The notes: generated by a model from the sequence alone, not told the origin. A stretch of DNA of 31,871 bases from Ilumatobacteraceae bacterium (GCA_036274875.1 DASUEW010000642.1:1-31871); one strand, 5' to 3'. Positions 1,238-13,710 are shown, counted from the stretch's first letter. Made by a program: numbers and translations.

Positions 1238-1696
1238 TCAGAGCCGGCTGGCGACCAATCTGGCGATCACATCGACCGCGTCCTCCACCGCACCGGCGAC
1301 CGCGGATGAGAGTCCGCGGCCGGGAGTCGTCTCGTGCGCCTCGACCCCGACGACGATCAGCCGTTTCGGGAGTCGATCGAGGGCGCGGCCGAGCGCGACG
1401 GCGTCTGCGAGACCCAATGCGTGGCTTCCAGTCGAGGCCGACGTGCTCGGCAGTTCGGAGTCGTCCGCCCACACGTGGATCTTCCCGGGCGCGCCGCCGC
1501 CGCGGACGGCGTCGACGACCACCGCCACGTCGACACCGGCCCAGGCGTCCAGGAGCCGGGTCGGCTCGCCGTCCGATTCGACGACGTCGACGGCCGGTCC
1601 GACGCGTTGGCCGACGGCTTCGGCGACGGCCCACCCGATGCCGTCGTCCCGCCGCCAGGGGTTGCCGACGCCGATGATGACCGCGCGCGATGTCAC
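1238..1696 (-). CDS. [NiFe]-hydrogenase maturation endopeptidase (HybD/HoxW-like), 152 aa
   Basis: IIGVGNPWRRDDGIG, VVVDAV, SHALGL motifs; GTG at 1696 overlaps the large-subunit stop (GTGA). Confidence 0.92.
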   Translation of the reverse strand: MTSRAVIIGVGNPWRRDDGIGWAVAEAVGQRVGPAVDVVESDGEPTRLLDAWAGVDVAVVVDAVRGGGAPGKIHVWADDSELPSTSASTGSHALGLADAVALGRALDRLPKRLIVVGVEAHETTPGRGLSSAVAGAVEDAVDVIARLVASRL

Positions 1697-2997
1697 GCTC
1701 GGTCGACGGTCAGATCGAGGAAATGCGTGGCGCACGAGATGCACGGGTCGTAGTTGCGGATGACCTGTTCGGCTCGCCGTCCGAGCTCGTCGTCGGCAAG
1801 GTGGAGGTTCCCCTCGACGAAGTGGAACAGGTCGTGCTCGATGCTCGCCTGGTTCTGCGACGTCGGGGGCACGATCCGGGCGCCGAGGATCGTCCCGTCG
1901 TCGTCGAGCTGATACCGATGCCACAGCATCCCCCGCGGCGCTTCGGTCCAGCCGAACCCGACGCCCGCCCGCGGCGGCACCTCGACCGCAGGTCGCTCCG
2001 GCTCGCGGTAGCGCTCGATGATGGCAAGACCCTCGTCGCAGGCGTGGACGATCTCGACGGCTCGGATCACGATCGACCGGAACGGGTTGCGTTCCGCCGG
2101 CGTGAGACCGGCGGCGCCCGCGGCGTCGCGCGCGAGCGGTGTGAGCTCGTCGAAGTTCAGCGCGAACCGGGCGAGTGGCCCTAGGAAGTACTCACCTCGC
2201 CCGAGCACGCGGGCGTGGAGCGCGGTCGAGTGCTCCACGTGGTCTTCGACGATGTGATGCTCGAGCTCCTCCGGTCCGATGTCGAGCCCGAGCGTCGAGA
2301 CGAGCCGACCCCGGGTGATCGGGTACTCACCTGGATGGCGGAGTGCCGCCAACTCCCCGGGCCACTCGTGGTCGGGGAAGTCGAACCCGGCAACCCAGCG
2401 GACCGTGTCCAGCGCGAGCTCTCGCGCCCGCTCCAATCGCGGTGCGATCGCTCGCAACTGGGCCTCGGTCGGTACCCGGTAGAAGCCCCCGATCCGCACA
2501 TTGACGGGGTGGATCGCCCGGCCGCCGATGAGCTCGACGAGCTGGTTGCCGATCTTCTTGAGGTCGAGGCCGCGTTGCACGAGGTCGCGGTGGGCGGTGG
2601 CCATCTCGATGGCGCCGTCGTAGCCGAGGAAATCCGGTGCGTGCAGGAGATAGATGTGCAGGCTGTGGCTCTCGATCCACTCGCCGCAGTACATGAGACG
2701 GCGCAGGTCGACGACCGGAGCGTCGACCGTGACGTCGCACAGCGACTCGATCGCGTTGCAGGCGCTCATCTGATAGGCGACCGGGCAGATACCGCAGATG
2801 CGGGCCGTGATGTCCGGTGGTTCGGTGTACGCCCGGCCTCGCAACAGCGCCTCGAAGAAGCGCGGCGGCTCGTAGATCCGCAACTGCACTTCGCGCACCT
2901 GCCCGTCGCGGATCACTACATGCATCGCGCCTTCCCCCTCGACACGCGCGAGTCCCGAGACTGTGAAGGTCCGATCAGGGTCGGCCCGGTGGGTCAT
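1693..2997 (-). CDS. hydA: Group 3b [NiFe]-hydrogenase large (alpha) subunit, 434 aa
   Basis: ARVEGEG, L1 [11 protein letters not shown]2 [12 protein letters not shown] followed by a 9-aa cleavable tail [12 protein letters not shown] 2997 overlaps the delta stop (ATGA). The 748-aa ORF in the track over-extends upstream. Confidence 0.96.
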
Positions 2998-3788
2998 GTC
3001 GGCCCTTCGTTGGTGGTGAGTCGCTCGCTCTCCTGGTGGAACCGTTCGGCGCCGGTGTTGAAGGTGCGCAGCATGCGGACCAGGTCGAGTCGACCGACGC
3101 CGAGCCGGCCGAGCTCGGTTGACAGCGAGGCAGGGTTCGGGTCCTCCGCGGGACCGAAGCAGCCGTAGCAACCTCGCCCGTAGGTCGGGCACAGCGCGCC
3201 ACAACCGGCCTGGGTGACGGGACCGAGGCACGGCGTTCCGCCGGCCACCATCACGCACACGTTGCCGCGGAGCTTGCACTCGACGCACACGCTGTGACCG
3301 GCCACGTTGGGCCGGCGTTCGCCGAGGAACGCGGCGATCACGTCGAGGAGCTGGCGCTTGTCGATCGGACAGCCGCGCAGCTCGAAGTCGACCGGGACGT
3401 GGGCGCTGATCGGCGTCGAGGTGGCGAGCGTCGAGACATAGGACGGTGTGGCGTACACGATCCGCACGAAGTCGTCGATGTCGGCGTAGTTGCGGAGCGC
3501 CTGGATCCCACCGGCGGTGGCGCAGGCGCCGATCGTCACGAGGCGACGCGATGCCTCGCGGATTCCCTTGATGCGCTCGGCGTCGGCCTCGGTGGTGATC
3601 GAACCTTCGACGAGGGACAGGTCGTACGGGCCGGCGACGGTCGCCCGTGTTGCCTCGAGGAAGTAGGCGATCTGCACGCGTTCGGCGACGGCCAGCAATT
3701 CGTCCTCGCAGTCGAGCAACGAGAGCTGGCATCCGTCGCACGACGCGAACTTCCACACCGCGACGGTCGACCGGACGGTGCTGGTCAC
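2994..3788 (-). CDS. hydD: Group 3b [NiFe]-hydrogenase small (delta) subunit, about 264 aa
   Basis: [54 protein letters not shown] Fe-S motifs; GTG 3788 overlaps the gamma stop. Confidence 0.94.
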
Positions 3789-4663
3789 CACCGTCGAACC
3801 GCCAGCAGCGGGGCCGCGGTTGCCCAGGTGACGACCGGACCGTCGGCGCAGATGAAGAGCGGACCGAGCTGGCAGTGGCCACACTGGCGAACGGCACAGT
3901 GCATGTTCCGTTCGAGCGAGACGAAGATCCGCTCGGCATCGACCCCCGCGCCGACGAGGTCGCGGGCGACGACGCGGATCATCACCTCGGGCCCGCAGAG
4001 GAACACCGTCGCACGTGTGGGCGTGATCGGCAGGCGGTCGATCAACGTGGTGACCAGGCCGACGTGGCCCTCCCAGCCGCGCGGGGCGGCGTCGACCGTG
4101 ACGGCCACGTGGGCATCGCTTCGCGCCCGCCACGCCTCGATCTCCGGTGCGAAGAGCAGGTCAGCCGGGGTCCGGGCGCCGATCAGCACTGCGACCCGAT
4201 CGAACCGCCGGCGGTTCTCCAGCACCTCGCGGATCACTGGTCGCAGCGGTGCGAGGCCGATGCCGCCACCCAGGACCAACACGTCGGACCCCTCCGCCGC
4301 GGGGACCCCCCAACCGGCGCCGAACGGGCCGCGCACGCCCACGACCGACCCTGGCTCGAGCCGGCACAGCGCTCGTGTGGTCGCCCCGACGCCCCGGATG
4401 GTGTGCCGTAGGGCGCCCTCACGGGCCGGGCACCCGCTGATCGAGATCGGCGCCTCACCCACCCCGAACGCGTAGAGCATCGTGAACTGGCCGGGCTCGG
4501 GCTCGTCGATCGGCGCGTCGACCGGCTCGAGCCCGATCGTGATCGTGTCGGCGGTCTCCCGCTCGCGGCTGACGACCCGGTAGCGAGTCGGCACCATCGG
4601 CCCGACCGGCGGCCGGAGGCGACGGCCGGCGGACGTCGCCACCGCGCCGGCGTCAGCGGGCAT
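3785..4663 (-). CDS. hydG: Group 3b hydrogenase gamma subunit (FAD/NAD(P)-binding, 2Fe-2S), up to 292 aa
   Basis: [59 protein letters not shown]. Confidence 0.94.
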
Positions 4664-5123
4664 CGACGTTCCCGTAGAGATCGAGCAGACGGAACCGTGT
4701 GGCCTGGAGACGGTCGACGACGACCTGCGCGAATCGCTTCATCAGCCGGTACCCGAACACCGGGTCGGCGTCGCACTTGGCCCGCAGGCACGCCGACTCG
4801 ATCACGATCACGCGCGTTCTGTCGATCGCTTCGACGTCGTATGTCCACCGATAGGGCGGGAACAACCACGACCATCCGACGAGGTCGCCGGCACCGATCG
4901 TTTCGATCAGGAGTGGTCCGGTCGGTGCGTGCAGTTCGAGCGCCACCTTGCCATGCCGCACAACGAAGAACCGGTCTGCCGGCGCCCCTTCCCTTGCGAG
5001 GTAGGTCCCGGCCTGGAACACCTCGTTGTGCCCACACCCCGCCATCAGCTCGATGTCGGCCGGTTCGAGATCGCGCAGCACCGGCTGGTCGGCGAGGAGC
5101 TCGCGAATCGGGATGGGTCTCAT
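4653..5123 (-). CDS. Stand-alone cyclic-nucleotide-binding-fold (CAP_ED) protein without HTH, 156 aa
   Basis: LAREGAPADRFFVVRHGKVAL..IETIGAGDLVGWSWL beta-barrel pattern; ATG 5123 overlaps the beta stop (ATGA) and the 3' end overlaps the gamma start by 11 nt. Confidence 0.88.
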   Translation of the reverse strand: MRPIPIRELLADQPVLRDLEPADIELMAGCGHNEVFQAGTYLAREGAPADRFFVVRHGKVALELHAPTGPLLIETIGAGDLVGWSWLFPPYRWTYDVEAIDRTRVIVIESACLRAKCDADPVFGYRLMKRFAQVVVDRLQATRFRLLDLYGNVDAR

Positions 5124-6259
5124 ACGTCTGTCCCCCCGGCCGCGATCGCGGCGACTTCGGCGGTGAGATCGATGCCGGCGGGGCACCACGAGATGCAACG
5201 GCCACACCCGACGCAACCTGACTCGCCGAACTGATCCCACCACGTCGAGAGCTTGTGTGTGAGCCACTGCCGGTAGCGCGACCGTGTGTCGCCGCGCACG
5301 CTGCCAGCCCCGTGGACAACCGAGTGGCCGAGCGTGAAGCACGAGTCCCACCGCTGGACACGCTCGGCGCGGTCGCCATCCAGGGAGGTCACGTCCTCGA
5401 TCGCACTGCAGAAGCACGTGGGGCACACCAACGTGCAGTTCGTGCAGGAGAGACAGCGCTCCGCGACGTCGTCCCAACGAGGATGCTCGAGGTTGGCGAT
5501 CAACGCGTCACGCGCGGTCGCGGGGTCGAGGTGGCGTGACATTTGCTCGACGCTGTGGGCGAGGACGCGCCGCGCCGCGTCGAGATCGTCGCCAGTCGCT
5601 CCTCGCCACGACACCGTCGACTGGACGTCGGCCAACACCTCGGCTCCCCGCTCGGTGCCGACCTCGACCCACAACTCGTGGCGGCCCTCGTCGATCAGCT
5701 CGGTCGCGGCGAGGTCGTGTCCCGTCTCGACCGCCGGACCCGTGCCCATCGACGTGCAGAAACAGGTCGAAGCCGGGCTGCCGCAGTTCACCCCAACGAA
5801 GAACGCCCGTTCCCGCGACCGGACGTAGGAGGGGTCGGGATGGGGACCGTCGCGCACGACGTGGTCCTGGACGGCGATCGCCGCCAGCTCGCACGCCCGC
5901 ACCCCGACGAAGGCGTATGGCGGTGGCTCGACGACGTCGTCGACGAGCTCGAACCCGTCCCCGATCCGCAACGCCGACCACAGCGTGCGCCTGGGTGCCG
6001 TCAGATAGCGCCGCGGCGAGTAGGGCCCGACCGCGTACGCGAACAGGGACCGATCGTCGCGACGGCGCAACCGGTAGGTGGCAGCCTCCTGTTCGTCGCT
6101 CCACCCGACCGGGAGCGCGGCCACTCCGTCAACCTCGTCGAGCACGATCGCGCCATCGCGCACGGTCGGGGCGATGACCATGTAGCCCCGCCGGCGGAGC
6201 GCGCCGATCAGCTCGTCGACGGCTCGTTCGGCGGGCGAGAACACCAGACGCACGTTCAC
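5120..6259 (-). CDS. hydB: Group 3b hydrogenase beta subunit (4Fe-4S dicluster, AsrA/HydB-like), 379 aa
   Basis: GVRACEL, CGSPASTCFCTSM, CLSCTNCTLVCPTCFC, RYRQWLTHK, CVGCGRCISWCPAGID. Confidence 0.94.
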   Translation of the reverse strand: MNVRLVFSPAERAVDELIGALRRRGYMVIAPTVRDGAIVLDEVDGVAALPVGWSDEQEAATYRLRRRDDRSLFAYAVGPYSPRRYLTAPRRTLWSALRIGDGFELVDDVVEPPPYAFVGVRACELAAIAVQDHVVRDGPHPDPSYVRSRERAFFVGVNCGSPASTCFCTSMGTGPAVETGHDLAATELIDEGRHELWVEVGTERGAEVLADVQSTVSWRGATGDDLDAARRVLAHSVEQMSRHLDPATARDALIANLEHPRWDDVAERCLSCTNCTLVCPTCFCSAIEDVTSLDGDRAERVQRWDSCFTLGHSVVHGAGSVRGDTRSRYRQWLTHKLSTWWDQFGESGCVGCGRCISWCPAGIDLTAEVAAIAAGGTDV

Positions 6260-6317
6260 CGGGCCTCAGCGTGCCCGATCCCGTGCCGGCCGTCCAGGGC
6301 GACGCGGGGGCAAGCGA

Positions 6318-7205
6318 TCACGCGTCCATCACCACCTCGTCGAAGACGGATCCGTCCTGGCCGATCGCACGAAGCATCAGCCGGTCCCCGGTGATGGCGA
6401 TGTCCAGGAAGTTGTGCCACGAATACGACGCGGCCGTGAAGGCGTCGGCACCGGTGCGGCGGGTACCTGCCCCCGCACCCGACACCACGTACGTCACGCC
6501 GCCGATCGGCACACTGCGCTGGTAGTCGTGGTCGTGACCGGACAGGACGAGTTGCACGCCGTATTGCTCGAACAGCGGTGACAGCGCTTGCCGCACGTTG
6601 ATACTCGACCCCTGGTAGCCGGCCGAGTAGGGCGGGTGATGGAGTGCGACAATCTTCCATCCGGCCGACGTCGAGGCGAGCGAATCCTCGAGGAACGCGA
6701 GTTGCTCGGGGTCGGCGACTTCGTTGGAGTCGAGGCCGACGATCAGGACATCGTCGTACTCCTCGGCCCAGAACCGCCCGGACATGCCGAGCGCCTCCAT
6801 CTGCGCATCGCCCCAGCCGTCCTTCACATCGTGGTTACCGAGGATCGCCAGGAGCACGGTGCCGCTGTCGAGGACCTCGCTGAAAGGCTCGAACACCGTG
6901 CCGGGGAGATTCGCCGGATTGCCGGTCGGGTAGACGTTGTCGCCCAGCAGCAACAGCGCGTCGTACGGTTCGATCGCGCCGATCCGCGCCACGGCCGCAC
7001 CCGTGGCGTCGATCCTGGAGCCGCTGTCGCCGACGTCGCCGGCAGCGGCCAGATGGAATGCGGCCGGCGGGTCGTGTGCCACATAGGCCCAAGTCGTCGA
7101 CGGCCCGTCCTTGCGGTGCGTCAGATACGACACGACCTGACGGTGGTACAACGCGAATCCGACCCCGAGGCCGGCCACGAGCACGAGAACGAGCAGCAGC
7201 GCCAA
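6318..7205 (-). CDS. Membrane-anchored or exported metallophosphoesterase (purple-acid-phosphatase-like); start uncertain
   Basis: All five calcineurin-like motifs: GDVG, GDNVY, GNHD, ALHHPPY, SGHDHDY; N-terminal hydrophobic segment. The frame continues upstream as an Arg-rich n-region (TGRRFARRRPRIAWRS) with no in-frame ATG/GTG. Confidence 0.88.
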   Translation of the reverse strand: MALLLVLVLVAGLGVGFALYHRQVVSYLTHRKDGPSTTWAYVAHDPPAAFHLAAAGDVGDSGSRIDATGAAVARIGAIEPYDALLLLGDNVYPTGNPANLPGTVFEPFSEVLDSGTVLLAILGNHDVKDGWGDAQMEALGMSGRFWAEEYDDVLIVGLDSNEVADPEQLAFLEDSLASTSAGWKIVALHHPPYSAGYQGSSINVRQALSPLFEQYGVQLVLSGHDHDYQRSVPIGGVTYVVSGAGAGTRRTGADAFTAASYSWHNFLDIAITGDRLMLRAIGQDGSVFDEVVMDA

Positions 7206-7306
7206 GCTGCGCCAGGCGATGCGGGGGCGTCGTCGGGCGAATCGTCGGCCAGTGAGCGCAGCGGTGTCCGTGACCTCATCGTGCGCCCGAGCCGGCCGGA
7301 ACCCCA

Positions 7307-7320
7307 GGGACCAATGGCCC
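7307..7320. promoter_or_regulatory. DosR/DevR-type box GGGAC-CAAT-G-G-CCC, with a degenerate second site at 7327-7340
   Basis: Exact match to GGGAC-N4-G-N-CCC. Centred about 43 nt upstream of the inferred leaderless start at 7357. The weaker copy TCGAC-AATC-G-G-CTC lies 20 bp downstream. Confidence 0.55.
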
Positions 7321-7343
7321 GAGACGTCGACAATCGGCTCGCG

Positions 7344-7349
7344 TACCGT
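7344..7349 (+). promoter_or_regulatory. -10 element TACCGT of a probable leaderless promoter
   Basis: TANNNT hexamer followed by 7 nt and then GTG 7357. Confidence 0.55.
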
Positions 7350-7356
7350 GATTGGT

Positions 7357-9558
7357 GTGACGCGTCACGCGGTCGTGTACCCGCTCGCGGACCCGCATGC
7401 CTGCGTGGCGGCGGTCGCAGGTGCCAAGGCGGCGAACATCGCCCGCGCCGCGATCGCCGGGTTCCCGACGGTGCCGGGGTTCGTGATCACGACCGCGGGC
7501 GTCGCGTCGGGAATCGACCAAGCCGACGTCGTTGCCGACGTGCGCCGGGCGTTCGACGAGCTCGCCGACGGGACTGCCGCGCCCTTGGTCGTGCGGTCGT
7601 CGTCGACGATCGAGGACGCCGGCGTCTCGTCGATGGCGGGTCGGTTCACCTCGGTCCTCGACGTCGTCGGCTGGGAGGCGTTCGTGACCGCGGTCCACGC
7701 GGTCATCCGATCCGGCGAGGACGTCCGCGACGATACGGGTACGGCGCAACCGATGGCCGTGCTCGTGCAGCGCCAACTCGTCACCGGGCTCGGCGGGGTG
7801 CTGTTCGGCGTCGATCCCGTGACCGGGAGCCGCGGCCACGTCGTGGTCGAAGCGGTGCCGTCTCGCCCCGACGTGCTCGTCAGCGGCACCGCACTCGCCG
7901 ATCACTACGTGCTGTCGCGCCGCGGCCGGGTCCTGCAGGCGACCCGGACCGGCTCGATGCCGGCGCTCGATCGGGCACGGCGGCGCTCGCTGGTGCGGCT
8001 GGCCCTGCGTGCCGAGCACCTGTTCGGTGCCCCACAGGACATCGAGTGGTGCGTCGACACCGACAGCCGGCTGTGGTTGCTGCAGAGCCGGCCGGTGACG
8101 GCGGTGGCGACTGACGACAACGGTCAGTCCGTCCTGCTCGGACCGGGGCCCGTGGCCGAGACGTTCCCGTCACCGTTGCGACAGCTCGAGGACGACCTGT
8201 GGATCCAGCCGCTGCGTGACGGGATCACTCGAGCCCTGCTCACGACGGGAGCCGTGTCGGAGAAGGCGATCAGAAGGTCACCGGTGGTGACGACGGTGAG
8301 CGGGTGGGCGGCGGTCGATCTGGAGCTGATCGGTCTCACCGACGGGCGCACCACGTTGCGCCGGCGGATGAATCCGTTCGTGATCATCCGCCGGCTCGGG
8401 ACGGCATGGCGCGTGGGGCGCCTCCGCGTGGCGCTCCCGGCGCTGGCGGATGCGATCGTCTCCACGGTCGACCGGGATCTCGCGATGGTCCCACGGCTCG
8501 ATGAGTTGACGACCGCCGAGCTCGCCGTCGTTCTCGATCGGGCGCGTCGCGAGCTGGCGACCGTGCACGCCCACGAGGTGCTCGCCGGGATGCTGCTCCG
8601 CGGGAACGACTCGGAGTCGTCGGCGGCCGGGCTGGCACTGAGGACGCTCCACGACGCGCGGGCTGCCGGTTGGGACGACGCGGAGGTGGTCTCCCGTTCG
8701 CCAGTCGTCCTCGTCCTGTCACCACCGAGTCTCGATGTCCCGCCGGGCCTTCCGGCCGACGTGCCCGTTCCGCACGGCGACGCGTGCACGGTCGACGGCC
8801 TCGGCAGCCGTGAGGCGCTGCGGCTGCGGGCACGATGGCTGCAGGAGCTCGAGGTGCGACTCGCCACGGAGCTGGGCCGTCGGTTGGCCGACGAAGGCTC
8901 CTTGTCCGACGCACGCATGCTCGGCGAGCTCCATCTGTCGGAGCTGCTCACCATGGCGGCCGGCGGGCCGCCCCCCAGCGATCTCGGCGATCGACACGCC
9001 GATCGATTCGCTCGTCGCGGCGGTCCACCGCTGCCCGCCGCGTTCCGGCTGGCCGTCTCTGGCGAGGTGCGTCCGGCCGGCAACTCGTCGCCGGCACGGC
9101 GGAGGAGCGAACCGGCCGGACTGCCGGCGGGTGGAGGCCGAGCGGTGGGTGTGGTACGCCACCGGCTCCCCGACGGTCCTGCGACCGAGGGCTCGATCCT
9201 CGTGACACGCCACCTCGAGCCGCAGCTGGCGCCGATGCTCGGCGGCCTCGTGGGCCTCGTCTCGGAGACCGGCAGCGCGCTGTCGCACCTGGCGATCCTT
9301 GCCCGTGAGGTGGGCCTGCCGACGGTCGCAGGGGTCACCGACGCGCTCAGGCGCTTCCCACCCGGCACACGGTTGTTGGTCGACGGGGGCACCGGGGAGA
9401 TCGAGGTGCTCGAGAGCATCATCGGTGGCGCGGTCGGCGAGGTGTCCGATGGCGTCGGCGAGGTTTCCGATGGCGTCGATGACCAAGACGTGTCCGATGG
9501 CGTCGACGACGTCGACGACGTCGACGGTGCATCCGACACGGCGATGGCGGCGCCATGA
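7357..9558 (+). CDS. PEP-synthase/PPDK-superfamily phosphotransferase with ATP-grasp, central domain and C-terminal phospho-His swivel (RPH/PigC-like architecture), about 733 aa
   Basis: GAKAANI, VVRSSSTIED..SMAGRF, AVLVQ, PQDIEW..LWLLQSRPVT; C-terminal GLVSETGSALSHLAILAREVGLP (His codon 9286-9288), LVDGGTG. No C-terminal PEP-binding TIM barrel. Confidence 0.88.
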   Translation: MTRHAVVYPLADPHACVAAVAGAKAANIARAAIAGFPTVPGFVITTAGVASGIDQADVVADVRRAFDELADGTAAPLVVRSSSTIEDAGVSSMAGRFTSVLDVVGWEAFVTAVHAVIRSGEDVRDDTGTAQPMAVLVQRQLVTGLGGVLFGVDPVTGSRGHVVVEAVPSRPDVLVSGTALADHYVLSRRGRVLQATRTGSMPALDRARRRSLVRLALRAEHLFGAPQDIEWCVDTDSRLWLLQSRPVTAVATDDNGQSVLLGPGPVAETFPSPLRQLEDDLWIQPLRDGITRALLTTGAVSEKAIRRSPVVTTVSGWAAVDLELIGLTDGRTTLRRRMNPFVIIRRLGTAWRVGRLRVALPALADAIVSTVDRDLAMVPRLDELTTAELAVVLDRARRELATVHAHEVLAGMLLRGNDSESSAAGLALRTLHDARAAGWDDAEVVSRSPVVLVLSPPSLDVPPGLPADVPVPHGDACTVDGLGSREALRLRARWLQELEVRLATELGRRLADEGSLSDARMLGELHLSELLTMAAGGPPPSDLGDRHADRFARRGGPPLPAAFRLAVSGEVRPAGNSSPARRRSEPAGLPAGGGRAVGVVRHRLPDGPATEGSILVTRHLEPQLAPMLGGLVGLVSETGSALSHLAILAREVGLPTVAGVTDALRRFPPGTRLLVDGGTGEIEVLESIIGGAVGEVSDGVGEVSDGVDDQDVSDGVDDVDDVDGASDTAMAAP
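9433..9528 (+). repeat. Coding tandem repeat encoding an acidic tail (VGEVSDG x2, DVSDG, VDD x3)
   Basis: 21-bp units gtcggcgaggt(g/t)tccgatggc at 9433 and 9454, a third partial copy, then gtcgacgac x2 and gtcgacggt. Confidence 0.85.
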
Positions 9559-10463
9559 CACTCGTGCGACTCGCGCGCTCGGTCGGGTTCGCCCTCGCGT
9601 TCTTGATCCTGGCGGTGTCGGGTGTCTACGTCGTCATCGACCTGGCCCGGTGGGAATGGAACCGGGCGATCATCTCGGCGCTGGTGTTCCTGTCGTCGCT
9701 GGTCGTGCTCGTGGCGATGATGTTGTTCCGACAACTCCACCGCCTCGAGATGCGGATGGGCGCCCTCGAGCACCAGCGGCGAGACGTCACCGACGTGCTC
9801 GGCACACTTCGCGCCACCAACGTCGCCGGCGCCGGACAGCGATTCCGGTGGCTCGAACAATCGCCGGACAGGTTGACCGTGTTCGTCCCCGTGCTGCTCG
9901 GGGCCGGGGTGGTCCTGTCGTTCGTGGCATACCTCATCGAGCGCATCGGTGGCGCGTTCGCCGCATCCGCCCTCGACCCACGGACGGCTCGCGAACTGGC
10001 GCCCGACCTACCCCTCGGCACGGGCATCGTGGAGCCAGTCGGCGAACGAGCGCTGCGCGAGCCGGTGCGCCGGCCCGCCGCGCGGGCCGTCGCGCTCGTC
10101 GTCACGGTGGTGCTGGCAGTGGTGCTGGTGCAGGGCTTGCGTGAGCTGACCCAGTCGCGCCCGGGCGAGTTGACGGCCCCTGGCGCAACCACCATCGTCG
10201 TCGACATCGGGCAGCGACGCCAGATCCGACCGCTCGAGGTCGTCGCCACCGACCTCTGGAGCACTTGCCGATCACGGTTGCCGGGCCCGCTCGAGCTCGT
10301 GGCGATCACGCCGACCGTCGGGGAAAGGGTGCGCCTCGACCTCGATCGCGCGCTCGGTCACACCGGGCGGGCGCGCATCGTCGGCTGTCTCGAGGACTAC
10401 ACCCTCGACCTCGTTCAGGCCGACGTAGTGAGCATCGACTCGTCGCCGTCGCCAGTTGGCTGA
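9555..10463 (+). CDS. Hypothetical 4-TM membrane protein with WEWNRA motif and a soluble C-terminal domain with two Cys, 302 aa
   Basis: ATG overlaps the dikinase stop (ATGA); four hydrophobic segments; GC-rich third codon positions. Confidence 0.8.
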   Translation: MTLVRLARSVGFALAFLILAVSGVYVVIDLARWEWNRAIISALVFLSSLVVLVAMMLFRQLHRLEMRMGALEHQRRDVTDVLGTLRATNVAGAGQRFRWLEQSPDRLTVFVPVLLGAGVVLSFVAYLIERIGGAFAASALDPRTARELAPDLPLGTGIVEPVGERALREPVRRPAARAVALVVTVVLAVVLVQGLRELTQSRPGELTAPGATTIVVDIGQRRQIRPLEVVATDLWSTCRSRLPGPLELVAITPTVGERVRLDLDRALGHTGRARIVGCLEDYTLDLVQADVVSIDSSPSPVG

Positions 10464-10538: not shown

Positions 10539-11306
10539 ATGGCGGGGACGGGCGAGCAGTCCGATCCGGAGCCCCCGACACCCGCTCGGACCCATCCTTC
10601 CGTCCGCACCGCGGTTGGCGCTGATCTCCGTGACGCGACGTGGCCGCAGCGGCTGGCGCTCGGTGGGGTGGTGTGGTGGATCACCTACGAATGGGGTCCC
10701 GGCAACGAGACGTTCACGCCCTGGTTGCTCGCTCAGGTGATCGCCGCGTCCGATTCGGCCTGGGTCATCCCGCTCGCGGCGCTCGTCGGGTTCGCCTTCA
10801 CCGCAACACAGCAGCTGGCGTCGGGTTTCACGGCGCTGGCGGGATTCTCGATGTTCGACCGCACGTCGCGAGCTGCATGGAACCGGTTGCGGGGCCAGTC
10901 GGACACGGCTCCCGGTGAGTGGTCGCGCCTCGGCTGGGTCGCTCGATCGGCCATCGTCTTCCCGCTCGGCACGACGTCGGTGGCGCTGATCCAGATCATG
11001 ACCACCGGCGAGGTCGGAGTGCGTCGCCACCGGCGGGTCGTCGCGACGAGTGCGTTGCTGTGCGCCACGCTCGTGGGGGCGCTGGCGGCGATCGCTGGCA
11101 GTCTGGCCCTCGTCGGGCGCAACGTGCCTGCACTCGAAGGCGCCACGAACTGGATCCTGCGCGTGCTCGGCAACCCGCTGTTCTGGCTGGCCTTGATCGT
11201 GGTTTCCGTCGTGGGCCGAAGGATTCATGGCCGCACGACGCAATCCCCGAAGATTCTCACGCTCGGTGACCAAACCGACGCAACCGATGAGGGATCGCCC
11301 GCCTAA
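10539..11306 (+). CDS. Hypothetical multi-pass membrane protein, 255 aa
   Basis: 4-5 hydrophobic segments and a YEWGPGNE motif; TACTGT -10 at 10527-10532, 6 nt before the ATG. Confidence 0.7.
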   Translation: MAGTGEQSDPEPPTPARTHPSVRTAVGADLRDATWPQRLALGGVVWWITYEWGPGNETFTPWLLAQVIAASDSAWVIPLAALVGFAFTATQQLASGFTALAGFSMFDRTSRAAWNRLRGQSDTAPGEWSRLGWVARSAIVFPLGTTSVALIQIMTTGEVGVRRHRRVVATSALLCATLVGALAAIAGSLALVGRNVPALEGATNWILRVLGNPLFWLALIVVSVVGRRIHGRTTQSPKILTLGDQTDATDEGSPA

Positions 11307-11415: not shown

Positions 11416-13710
11416 GTGACTTCTGAGTCGATGACCCCTCGCTCGGCGTCCGACCGCATCACGTGGATCTCGACGACCGCGTTCGCGACGGTCATCGCCG
11501 CACACGCGTTGGGTGTGTTGCGAGCCGTCACCTATCCCGCCGTCATCGTCGGTGGCATCGGGTGCGCCTTCATCGGCTTGCGGATGCACCGGCCGAAGTT
11601 GCGTTGGCCGTGGTGGGCGATGGTCGTCGCCGGCCTGTTGTGGGCGATCGCCGGGTTCGCCCGTGAGGTCACCGACGCCACGGGCGACCTCACCGCGAAC
11701 CGGTCGTTGATCCCGGATCTCTTCGCGCTTCCCGGTTACGGCCTGTTCGGACTCGCGCTGTACGGCCTGCTGCGAGCGCGCGGCGGGCCCGACGACTACG
11801 GCGCCCGGCTCGACGGGATCATGCTCGGCGCCGGGGCGTTGCTGTTCGTCAACGAGCTGTTGATCTTGCCGACCTTGCGCCTCGAGGGGACGTGGGTGAT
11901 GGCCAGGATCGCGATTGCGATCTACCCCGCGATCTCGATGTGTCTCCTCGTGCTCGCCATCCGGCTGGCGTTCTCGTCGGGGCAACGGTCGCCGGCCTTC
12001 ACGCTGCTGCTCGGCGGCACGGCGTGCCTGCTGGTCGGCGACGTCGTGTTCGCACTGGGCGACTCGGGCCGGTTGGTCGTCAGCCAGCGCCTGCTCGAGG
12101 TGCCATATCTGCTGATCCCCGCGGCGATGGGATCGGCCATCCTGCAACCGTCGATCCGCTTCTTCGCCCGGCCGGCCCGTCAGCCCGTCAACACGATGAG
12201 TCGCGGTCGGCTCATCGCCGTGGCGGCGGCGCTGCTGGCCCCGATCGCGGTCATCGCGATCCACGACATGTCGTTCGCCCGTTCGGTGACAGTGGTGGTC
12301 TGCCTCGTGCTCGCGCTGTCGGCGATCATGCGCCTCGCGAGTGCGATGAAGGAGCAGGCCGCGCTCGGCTTCCAGCTGACACATCAGGCCAACCACGACG
12401 ATCTCACCGGCCTGCCCAATCGCGTCCTGATCGTCAAGCACATCGACGCGATGCTCAGCGACTCGCGCCGCACCGGTCGACCAGTGGCGTTGATGTTCCT
12501 CGACCTCGACCAGTTCAAGCTCGTCAACGACTCGATGGGGCACGCGGTCGGCGACGAGCTGCTGGTCCTTGCCGGCCAGCGGATCGGCAATTGCGTGCGC
12601 AGTGACGACATCGTCGGCCGGATCTCGGGTGACGAGTTCCTCGTCGTCGCCGGCGGCCTCGATGCGGAGGGCGCGGCCGGACTCGCGGATCGGGTCAGGC
12701 GGGTGATGAGTGCCGCGTTCATGCTCGACCCCGGCGAAGTGTTCATCTCCGTCTCGATCGGCATCGCAGTCGCGTTCGGTGCCGACGTCGACGGAGCAGC
12801 GACGCTGATCCAGGAAGCCGATACCGCGATGTACCGCTCCAAGGACGCCGGCCGCAACGCGGTGACGGTGTTCGACACGTCGATGCTCGAGCGCGTCGCT
12901 CGACGCGTCGAGCTGGAACGACGACTCCGTCAGGCACTGGCAGCGGGGCAGATCGTCGCCTACTACCAACCGCTGGTGCGGTTGCCGACCGGCAACGTCG
13001 TCGGGTTCGAAGCGCTCGCGCGATGGGAGAACGACCGGCAGATGATCGCCTCGTCGGAGTTCATCCCGGTCGCCGAGGAGTCCGGCCTGATCGTCCCGCT
13101 CGGCGCGTACATGGTGGACGAGGCGTGTCGCAGCCTTGCCCACTGGCGCCGCACGATCCCCGGCGGGGAGCAGCTCTACGTGTCCGTCAACCTCTCACCG
13201 CGGCAAGTGCGCGAGAGCGACATCGTCGACATCGTGGCCGATGCACTCCTCCGCCACGGCCTGCCCGGCACCGCACTGTGGCTCGAGATCACCGAGAGCG
13301 TGATGATGGAGGACTCGGTCTCGACCGCCGGCGTGATGGTCGGCCTGCGGTCGCTCGGCGTGCGCCTGTCCGTCGACGACTTCGGCACCGGCTTCTCGTC
13401 GCTCTCGACGCTCAAGCGCTTCCCGGTGTCGGGCGTCAAGATCGACCGCTCCTTCGTGTCCGGTCTCGGCCAGCATCAGTCGGACTCGTCGCTGGTGGCC
13501 GCGATCGTGGCGATGGCATCCGCGCTGGGTCTCGTCGCCATCGCCGAAGGCGTCGAGACGCATGACCAGGCGACCCGATTGCTCGAGCTCGGCTGTACCG
13601 AGGTGCAGGGCTACCTCTTCGCGACGGCAGTGCCGTTCGACGACGTGCCGTCGACGGTCGCCCGTCTCGGCGTTGCCGGGCACGCGGTGCTCGAGTCCCG
13701 CGTGCCCTGA
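11416..13710 (+). CDS. Membrane-bound GGDEF-EAL diguanylate cyclase/phosphodiesterase, about 764 aa (start 11416 or ATG 11431)
   Basis: About 10 N-terminal TM helices; HDDLTGLPNR, FLDLDQFKLVNDSMGHAVGDELL, RSDD I-site plus RISGDEF; EAL domain FEALARW, VNLS, EITES, DDFGTGFSSL, KIDRSF, AEGVET, QGYLF all intact. Confidence 0.95.
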   Translation: MTSESMTPRSASDRITWISTTAFATVIAAHALGVLRAVTYPAVIVGGIGCAFIGLRMHRPKLRWPWWAMVVAGLLWAIAGFAREVTDATGDLTANRSLIPDLFALPGYGLFGLALYGLLRARGGPDDYGARLDGIMLGAGALLFVNELLILPTLRLEGTWVMARIAIAIYPAISMCLLVLAIRLAFSSGQRSPAFTLLLGGTACLLVGDVVFALGDSGRLVVSQRLLEVPYLLIPAAMGSAILQPSIRFFARPARQPVNTMSRGRLIAVAAALLAPIAVIAIHDMSFARSVTVVVCLVLALSAIMRLASAMKEQAALGFQLTHQANHDDLTGLPNRVLIVKHIDAMLSDSRRTGRPVALMFLDLDQFKLVNDSMGHAVGDELLVLAGQRIGNCVRSDDIVGRISGDEFLVVAGGLDAEGAAGLADRVRRVMSAAFMLDPGEVFISVSIGIAVAFGADVDGAATLIQEADTAMYRSKDAGRNAVTVFDTSMLERVARRVELERRLRQALAAGQIVAYYQPLVRLPTGNVVGFEALARWENDRQMIASSEFIPVAEESGLIVPLGAYMVDEACRSLAHWRRTIPGGEQLYVSVNLSPRQVRESDIVDIVADALLRHGLPGTALWLEITESVMMEDSVSTAGVMVGLRSLGVRLSVDDFGTGFSSLSTLKRFPVSGVKIDRSFVSGLGQHQSDSSLVAAIVAMASALGLVAIAEGVETHDQATRLLELGCTEVQGYLFATAVPFDDVPSTVARLGVAGHAVLESRVP

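Follow-up and report, generated by a model that had tools for sequence, protein, structure and literature searches.

To our knowledge, dikinases related to rifampin phosphotransferase (RPH) have so far been known solely as soluble enzymes that act on small molecules. The closest described example is the enzyme of Listeria monocytogenes (RPH-Lm), for which roles have been assigned to Lys22, Arg117 and His825 and, in a second site, to Arg666, Glu667 and Lys670 (PMC4844700). Here we analyse a dikinase-like gene (7357-9558, + strand) on a 31,871-nucleotide contig of an Ilumatobacteraceae bacterium (GCA_036274875.1, DASUEW010000642.1:1-31871; contig C642), the whole of which is referred to below as the window. 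The gene overlaps the start of a second gene, which encodes a membrane protein of an unnamed family (9555-10463, +), and a divergent intergenic region (7206-7356) separates it from the gene for a membrane-anchored, purple-acid-phosphatase-like metallophosphoesterase (6318-7205, -).

A first-pass annotation, made from the sequence of the window alone, had suggested that kinase, membrane partner and phosphatase form a unit and that this unit is attached to, and co-regulated with, a neighbouring group 3b hydrogenase. The unit is upheld by the comparisons described below and the hydrogenase link is not. On balance it is probable that the three genes represent one conserved actinobacterial module, in which a kinase/phosphatase cycle operates on a membrane-embedded acceptor that is presented by the membrane partner.

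The kinase and the membrane protein form an obligate pair

The source assembly, a metagenome-assembled genome, consists of 880 contigs, is 81.5% complete and has a G+C content of about 70%; to judge by named homologues it belongs to the Ilumatobacteraceae (class Acidimicrobiia). The membrane protein and the central domain of the kinase were used to search a panel of 41 related genomes. One genome per species was also scanned for relatives of the membrane protein, and of the 244 obtained the best 80 loci were studied. They extend from bins of the Acidimicrobiia as far as cultured Nocardia, Actinomadura, Spirillospora and Embleya; none is titled Mycobacterium, the genus of interest for an idea that was entertained, namely that the enzyme might be the missing mycobacterial PI3P kinase.

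In 79 of the 80 loci the kinase gene directly precedes that of the membrane protein, and in the remaining one the contig ends 152 bp upstream. This synteny of the pair spans Acidimicrobiia, Nocardia, Actinomadura and Embleya alike and runs counter to the objection that homologues of the two genes might not be neighbours elsewhere. Among the 41 relatives, the membrane protein is present in 12 and the kinase central domain in the identical 12, with equal copy numbers, and the two genes are side by side in every assembled case, a second pair in the window genome included. Kinase and membrane protein are an obligate gene pair, with a synteny and a phyletic coincidence far above chance. The distribution of the pair's membrane-protein family is patchy, as it occurs in 15 of 401 genomes of an even sample of the phylum (14 of 400 if the unpublished genome G041 is left out) and is clustered in a few families. 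A literature search found no paper describing the pairing.

The second pair of the window genome is located on contig C824 (L017:8917-11890, -) between enolase and a divIC/ftsB-like gene, and its membrane protein is split into a gene for helices 1-3 followed by a gene for helix 4 and the C-terminal domain. In same-genus relatives a PAP2 gene stands between the pair and divIC; it is absent from that place in the window genome. Six long proteins carry both the kinase and the membrane part and were considered as Rosetta stone fusions, a line of evidence that was dropped. In P0362 (972 amino acids) the swivel domain is read out of frame, so that the apparent fusion is a frameshift or a gene-calling artefact, of a kind made likely by the 4-bp gene overlap; P0354 (L023:8854-11610, -, relative G002) is fused in frame, although it comes from a metagenome bin and could reflect a single-base error. 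Given the artefact in the first and the possible base error in the second, the fusions are not counted.

The surroundings of the pair vary between clades. Six loci with a phosphatase of the dual-specificity type described below (L059, L067-L070 and L084) carry a gene for a GAF-domain histidine kinase directly upstream of the dikinase (about 1.3 kb upstream) and on the same strand, followed further out by genes for AIM24, a GT4 glycosyltransferase and a TauE-like protein. In the Nocardia loci L086, L087, L095, L099 and L101 a conservon-like set (NIT-sensor kinase, Roadblock/LC7 and ATP_bind_1 GTPase) is found downstream. One bin labelled as an uncultured member of the Acidobacteriota (L045) holds the whole trio, and as its kinase falls in the actinobacterial clade of the tree, mis-binning or gene transfer is suggested. 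No catabolic or biosynthetic genes travelling with the pair across clades, and no prodiginine genes beside it, were found in the neighbourhoods.

Four phosphatase families alternate beside the pair

The metallophosphoesterase of the window belongs to the most frequent class of phosphatase partner. An orthologue matching Metallophos, with 52-74% identity, is present in 30 of the 80 loci, mostly divergent and upstream, once upstream on the same strand and once downstream. In 21 loci a phosphatase of the dual-specificity/protein-tyrosine (DSP/PTP) type is encoded 5-288 bp past the membrane gene; its HCxAGVGRTG loop and its RDGQ acid motif are intact. A PhoD-like phosphatase with an N-terminal multi-helix domain (DUF7670) adjoins the pair in four loci, and a PAP2 protein with the full KX6RP-PSGH-SRX5HX3D signature was found in three, as well as in five loci from the relatives, which include the same-genus counterparts of the window genome's second pair. 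No locus among the 80 has two of the Metallophos, DSP and PhoD-like types, and PAP2 was seen only at loci where none of these three was found.

At least seven changes of phosphatase label are required on a tree of 64 kinases, compared with about 25 when the labels are shuffled; the tree predates the PAP2 finds, so its labels refer to the other phosphatase types only. We take this to mean that the partners have been replaced repeatedly, rather than inherited once. The Metallophos orthologue is found in four of the 41 relatives, every one of which belongs to the 12 pair-bearing genomes, although in two the gene is distant from the pair. This distribution argues that it is not a housekeeping gene. 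The link between phosphatase and pair is real but not fixed, and four families swap in this position.

The four types reach the membrane in different ways. The DSP and the metallophosphoesterase have a single N-terminal helix, the PhoD-like proteins about five helices ahead of the catalytic domain, and PAP2 is an integral membrane protein. The DSP anchors carry a net charge of +3 to +7 on their N-terminal side and of about 0 on their C-terminal side, an asymmetry from which the catalytic domain is predicted to lie outside the cell. PhoD and PAP2 enzymes usually act outside the cytoplasm. Solved relatives of the DSP partner include LSF2 and PTPMT1.

The window enzyme, 295 amino acids from a TTG start, matches Metallophos (PF00149) with 54.6 bits against a cut-off of 21.5, retains all five calcineurin-type metal-binding motifs (GDxGD, GDNVY, GNHD, HHP and GHDH), has purple acid phosphatases and Rv0805 as its nearest solved relatives and begins with a hydrophobic anchor. 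It had been described as divergent, membrane-anchored and exported: its orientation, family and anchor are as described, but its export could not be confirmed, as the charges on the two sides of the anchor are similar. Its only usual start codon, the TTG at 7205, opens right at the anchor. An Arg-rich stretch, GRRFARRRPRIAWRS, which precedes the anchor in homologues, is present in frame upstream (7206-7364, -) with no ATG, GTG or TTG before it, which may point to an unusual start codon or to a shortened N-terminus.

Relationship of the dikinase to RPH

When the open reading frame is numbered from 7219 (779 amino acids), a Pfam search places PPDK_N (PF01326) at residues 102-298 and PEP-utilizers (PF00391) at residues 656-726; these were the only matches, and no family of the phosphoenolpyruvate (PEP)/pyruvate TIM barrel, which in PEP synthase and pyruvate phosphate dikinase is C-terminal to a histidine domain in mid-chain, was matched. 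Alignment with 29 homologues favours a GTG start at 7357, which gives 733 residues and makes the histidine of the SHLAILARE motif His644 (codon 9286-9288). The first-pass annotation had read the gene in the same way, as an ATP-grasp N-domain and a phospho-histidine swivel domain in the order of RPH and PigC, with its catalytic histidine at that codon and with no barrel. The ATP-grasp domain occupies residues 1-250 (7357-8106), as delimited by PF01326, the alignment and a profile alignment to RPH-Lm residues 1-317. It is followed by a mostly helical central domain, presumed to bind the acceptor and defined from the AlphaFold model and Foldseek (residues 251-585, 8107-9111), and by the swivel domain matched by PF00391 (residues 586-688, 9112-9420). 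The AlphaFold model has a mean predicted local distance difference test (pLDDT) value of 82.6, and Foldseek matches the protein over its full length to RPH-Lm (E 1e-29, 17-18% identity); the domain order of RPH is thus recovered by Pfam, model and fold search.

Residues 689-733 and the stop codon (9421-9558) form an acidic low-complexity tail. Its 45 residues (9421-9555) contain GEVSDGV-type repeats, are modelled as disordered (pLDDT <50) and are absent from the 29 homologues.

The catalytic residues are conserved throughout the alignment of 30 sequences. In the ATP-grasp domain K24, R80-S83, E86, D87, D228, E230, Q243 and R245 are invariant, K24 and R80 being the counterparts of RPH-Lm Lys22 and Arg117 in a HMMER alignment, and the invariant H644 is aligned to His825 in the same manner. 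Conserved motifs of the central domain, a region matched by more than 2000 proteins, are GPGPxAETFP, WRVGRLR and R485-E/D486-x-L-R489. Kinase residues 251-507 have no sequence alignment to RPH, so that the rifampin-contact residues cannot be placed, and the profile alignment resumes at kinase residue 508, facing RPH residue 686. R485, E/D486 and R489 meet Arg666, Glu667 and Lys670 only if the register is run back 20 residues without a gap past the aligned block; on this basis, R485, E486 and R489 may be the equivalents of these second-site residues.

Models of the named families give scores for the kinase that lie 5- to 12-fold under their cut-offs. The NCBIfam RPH models NF041857 and NF000283 return 129.5 bits (cut-off 999) and 96 bits (cut-off 1700), those for PigC and RedH 106.9 (1300) and 140.6 (1350), the PEP synthase model TIGR01418 109.7 (739.75) and the VadK-related model PRK05878 40.8 (456). 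By comparison, the true PEP synthase encoded at locus L057 scores 1130.9 on NF005057 (cut-off 598) and 1093 on TIGR01418. Judged by sequence and model, the kinase is predicted to have an RPH-like fold with intact catalytic residues, and yet to stand outside RPH, PigC and PEP synthase proper.

The membrane protein

The stop codon of the dikinase and the start codon of the membrane protein can be read in an ATGA overlap at 9555-9558, as had been noted at first pass. The encoded protein (302 amino acids) has four predicted transmembrane helices at residues of about 10-30, 38-58, 107-128 and 177-197, with an RWEWNR turn between helices 1 and 2 (9648-9665). Its C-terminal domain, residues 205-298 (10167-10448), is modelled with pLDDT >90 as a beta-alpha-beta-beta-alpha-beta, ACT/ferredoxin-like fold and contains the only two cysteines of the protein, C238 (10266-10268) and C278 (10386-10388); the near-invariant cysteines and aspartate of this domain are C238, C278 and D281. 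The earlier picture of a four-helix protein with a WEWNRA motif (residues 33-38, 9651-9668) and two C-terminal cysteines is accurate.

Neither Pfam nor NCBIfam has a family that matches the protein, which RefSeq calls a 'hypothetical protein'. A profile search collected 845 clusters at 50% identity, none of them with a Pfam family and the named ones again 'hypothetical protein'. Fold searches (Foldseek on PDB, AlphaFold clusters, VIA-align wide and ESM Atlas) found only the protein's own unnamed clusters and generic matches, which were ACT/ferredoxin-like (Z about 8) or to helical hairpins. In one clade that includes Nocardia (L085, L087, L100, L102, L017 and others) the membrane protein is divided between neighbouring genes whose products have about 168 and about 125 residues, which places a domain boundary near residue 165-175.

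The hydrogenase operon and the intergenic region

The end of the phosphoesterase gene is separated by 58 bp from the first hydrogenase gene (5120-6259, -), which is on the same strand, and in this respect the first-pass annotation was correct. The operon (1238-6259, -) encodes a HycI-like protease, large and small subunits, a FAD/NAD subunit, a small protein with a cyclic nucleotide monophosphate (cNMP)-binding domain and an Fe-S subunit. The four hydrogenase subunits have their best NCBIfam matches in ShyA/HydA, HydB, HydG-type and HydD models of group 3b sulfhydrogenase, all under the equivalog cut-offs, which agrees with the group proposed earlier. The small cNMP-binding reading frame (4653-5120, -) overlaps both of its neighbours.

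The attachment to the hydrogenase, however, is not conserved. An orthologous locus of the same genus keeps the phosphoesterase, the kinase and the membrane protein and has no hydrogenase gene within 18 kb, and no hydrogenase was found within 8 kb of the pair in 79 of the 80 loci. The one locus with a hydrogenase is L057, where it is 4.6 kb off, behind a PhoD-like gene and the true PEP synthase. The link was therefore dropped as a conserved feature, and the presence of the hydrogenase next to the module is a local coincidence. A scan of 6100-7500 for promoter and terminator consensus sequences was uninformative, its single hit being a weak promoter-like site within the phosphoesterase gene. Since no terminator-like site was found, read-through from phosphoesterase to hydrogenase is possible in the window genome, although any such read-through would be local and not a property of the module.

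The divergent intergenic region contains a box, AGGGACCAATGGCCC (7306-7320), that occurs once in the window; this single occurrence alone is not above chance. Orthologous loci without a hydrogenase keep the box in the same place, with five exact matches to AGGGWCCAWYGGCCC and additional near matches. It has the form of a GGGAC-N4-GNCCC palindrome, like DosR-type sites. On the other side of the module, the membrane protein is followed on the same strand by an open reading frame with no assigned function (10539-11306, +) and by the gene for a GGDEF-EAL protein (11416-13710, +).

Discussion

The proposal of a module is built on four observations: the obligate pairing, the recurrent replacement of the phosphatase, the RPH-like fold and the intact catalytic residues. 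By analogy with the RPH family, the cytoplasmic dikinase would bind ATP in its ATP-grasp domain and pass the beta-phosphate to His644 of the swivel domain, with release of AMP and phosphate. The swivel domain would then carry the beta-phosphate over to a second site (R485, E486 and R489), located in the helical central domain, for transfer to a hydroxyl-type acceptor. The membrane protein would be required in order to dock the kinase, to present a membrane-embedded acceptor such as a lipid, a polyprenol-type alcohol or a lipid-linked glycan, or to move the product. Finally, a membrane-anchored phosphatase (here the 6318-7205 enzyme and elsewhere a DSP, PhoD-like or PAP2 protein) would strip off the phosphate, probably at the outer face, and the outcome would be a kinase/phosphatase cycle at the membrane. 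The docking, the kind of acceptor and the membrane face assigned to each step are our inferences.

Lipid phosphates are the classical substrates of PAP2 enzymes. The PAP2 partners, together with the DSP relatives PTPMT1 and LSF2, which act on lipids or glycans, speak for an acceptor that is a lipid or is linked to one. That the acceptor is specifically a lipid can be put forward only tentatively. Perhaps an RPH-like enzyme held at the membrane phosphorylates a lipid alcohol (polyprenol, glycolipid or quinol-type) and four interchangeable outer-face phosphatases reverse the reaction, which would make this the first membrane-lipid dikinase system; this we regard as a possibility of the same, tentative order.

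Several points weigh against the proposal. The data contain no direct sign of a lipid. The RPH/PigC-group enzymes known so far have soluble small molecules as substrates, and protein dephosphorylation is a classical role of DSP and PPP-like metallophosphatases as well. Among the loci flanked by 1.5 kb or more on each side, eleven, mostly from Nocardia and Actinomadura, have none of the four phosphatase types adjacent. The loops of the membrane protein each carry a net charge of about +1, so nearly balanced that the positive-inside rule favours neither orientation; the two flanks of the metallophosphoesterase anchor are likewise similar in charge. Finally, a complex prediction for kinase residues 1-690 with the membrane protein gave 0.02 against a mark of 0.32, a value from which no verdict is drawn.

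The main rival is that the pair forms a protein phosphorelay, in which His644 is autophosphorylated and the phosphate is passed to the membrane protein (its C-terminal domain, with C238, C278 and D281, offering candidate residues) or to another protein, while the phosphatases reset the signal. The DSP and calcineurin-like folds of two of the partners would suit such a role, as would an ACT/ferredoxin-like domain with near-invariant cysteine and aspartate residues and the GAF histidine kinase directly upstream in six DSP-type loci, and VadK, a TIM-less relative of pyruvate phosphate dikinase (PPDK) from Mycobacterium tuberculosis, is reported to be an autophosphorylating regulatory kinase (PMC13400623). 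However, PAP2 and PhoD-like enzymes, which are not known as protein phosphatases, occupy the same place; the kinase retains a large, conserved, RPH-like acceptor domain with its R-E-x-x-R motif; and phosphatase domains, if they face outwards, could not reach a cytoplasmic phospho-domain. We consider a phosphorelay unlikely.

Another possibility, and a slightly more doubtful one, is that the kinase modifies a soluble small molecule (a metabolite, xenobiotic or antibiotic), in the manner of RPH, PigC and the aromatic-ketone kinases, with the membrane protein importing the substrate or exporting the product and a phosphatase removing the phosphate outside. RPH is the best fold match, and the characterized relatives with the same domain order all act on small organic molecules (PMC4844700; PMC13534948; PMC12167813). 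Yet four helices and a small domain do not make a recognizable transporter, the PAP2 partners point to lipid phosphates, and the neighbourhoods hold no catabolic or biosynthetic genes that accompany the pair across clades.

A functional tie to fermentative H2 metabolism, with the module co-regulated with the group 3b hydrogenase or modifying a component for it, could draw on the 58-bp gap, the shared strand and the lack of a terminator-like site, on the hydrogenase 4.6 kb away in L057 and on the resemblance of the conserved box to a DosR-type palindrome; it is nevertheless very improbable, as the same-genus locus and 79 of the 80 loci lack a hydrogenase over the distances given above and the box is kept where there is none. 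Least credible of all, to the point of being negligible, is an ordinary PEP synthase or rifamycin-resistance kinase beside unrelated genes, which is what the source names of homologues ('pyruvate, water dikinase' or 'rifampicin phosphotransferase') would imply, but which is contradicted by the missing TIM barrel, by family scores far under their cut-offs, by a mostly unaligned central domain of about 335 residues compared with about 450 in RPH (residues 315-766; PMC4844700), and by a synteny and phyletic coincidence that unrelated neighbours would not be expected to have.

If the module operates on a membrane-embedded acceptor as proposed, it would be a reversible phosphorylation system of a new type for the bacterial envelope, combining an RPH-like dikinase with a membrane protein of its own and with a membrane phosphatase that can be exchanged, and, should the acceptor be a lipid, it would amount to an unrecognized lipid phosphorylation cycle in the actinobacterial envelope. 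It would also supply a first function for an unnamed membrane-protein family of about 845 sequence clusters. The two source names quoted above are misleading for the kinases of the module. Although the window genome is uncultured, the pair is also present in cultured Actinomadura, Embleya, Spirillospora and Nocardia, and so the module can be tested in culture.

Comparison with known systems

Cycles of a polyprenol or lipid kinase and a PAP2-type phosphatase act on membrane lipid across the inner and outer faces. In the cycle of undecaprenol kinase and BcrC/PgpB-type enzymes the lipid is phosphorylated in the cytoplasm and dephosphorylated at the outer face, and a PAP2 partner is likewise present in eight module loci. 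The known lipid kinases (DgkA-type and soluble diacylglycerol-kinase-type), however, make ADP and not AMP and have no sequence relation to the window kinase, so that this is a functional analogy only. Plant glucan water dikinase and the DSP glucan phosphatases SEX4 and LSF2 are a dikinase/DSP pair for the reversible phosphorylation of a non-protein, insoluble substrate (PMC13553574), although the domain order differs, carbohydrate-binding modules take the place of a membrane partner and, with no homology beyond the shared domains, the likeness is again one of analogy.

Among TIM-less enzymes, VadK (Rv1127c) of M. tuberculosis has lost the PEP/pyruvate barrel, keeps its ATP-grasp domain and catalytic histidine and is proposed to be regulatory (PMC13400623), but it is PPDK-derived, has another domain order and no membrane partner has been reported for it. 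The ATP-grasp domain of the window kinase resembles HpeI (PDB 9goj) of the HpeHI/phenylphosphate synthase type, which phosphorylates a hydroxyl via a swivel histidine (PMC12167813); those enzymes consist of two soluble proteins encoded in aromatic catabolic clusters, whereas the window kinase is encoded as one polypeptide and has a membrane partner. The prodiginine ligases PigC, HapC and RedH share its domain order and convert ATP to AMP via a phospho-histidine (PMC13534948), yet the PigC and RedH scores are far under the cut-offs and the window module has no prodiginine context. RPH-Lm (PDB 5FBS and 5HV1) has the same three-domain order, and the counterparts of its Lys22, Arg117 and His825 are invariant in the window kinase family, whose sequence is only distantly similar and whose central domain is, in the window protein, about 100 residues shorter. 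RPH-Lm is not reported to need a membrane protein or a phosphatase; the window kinase is paired with the former and usually with the latter.

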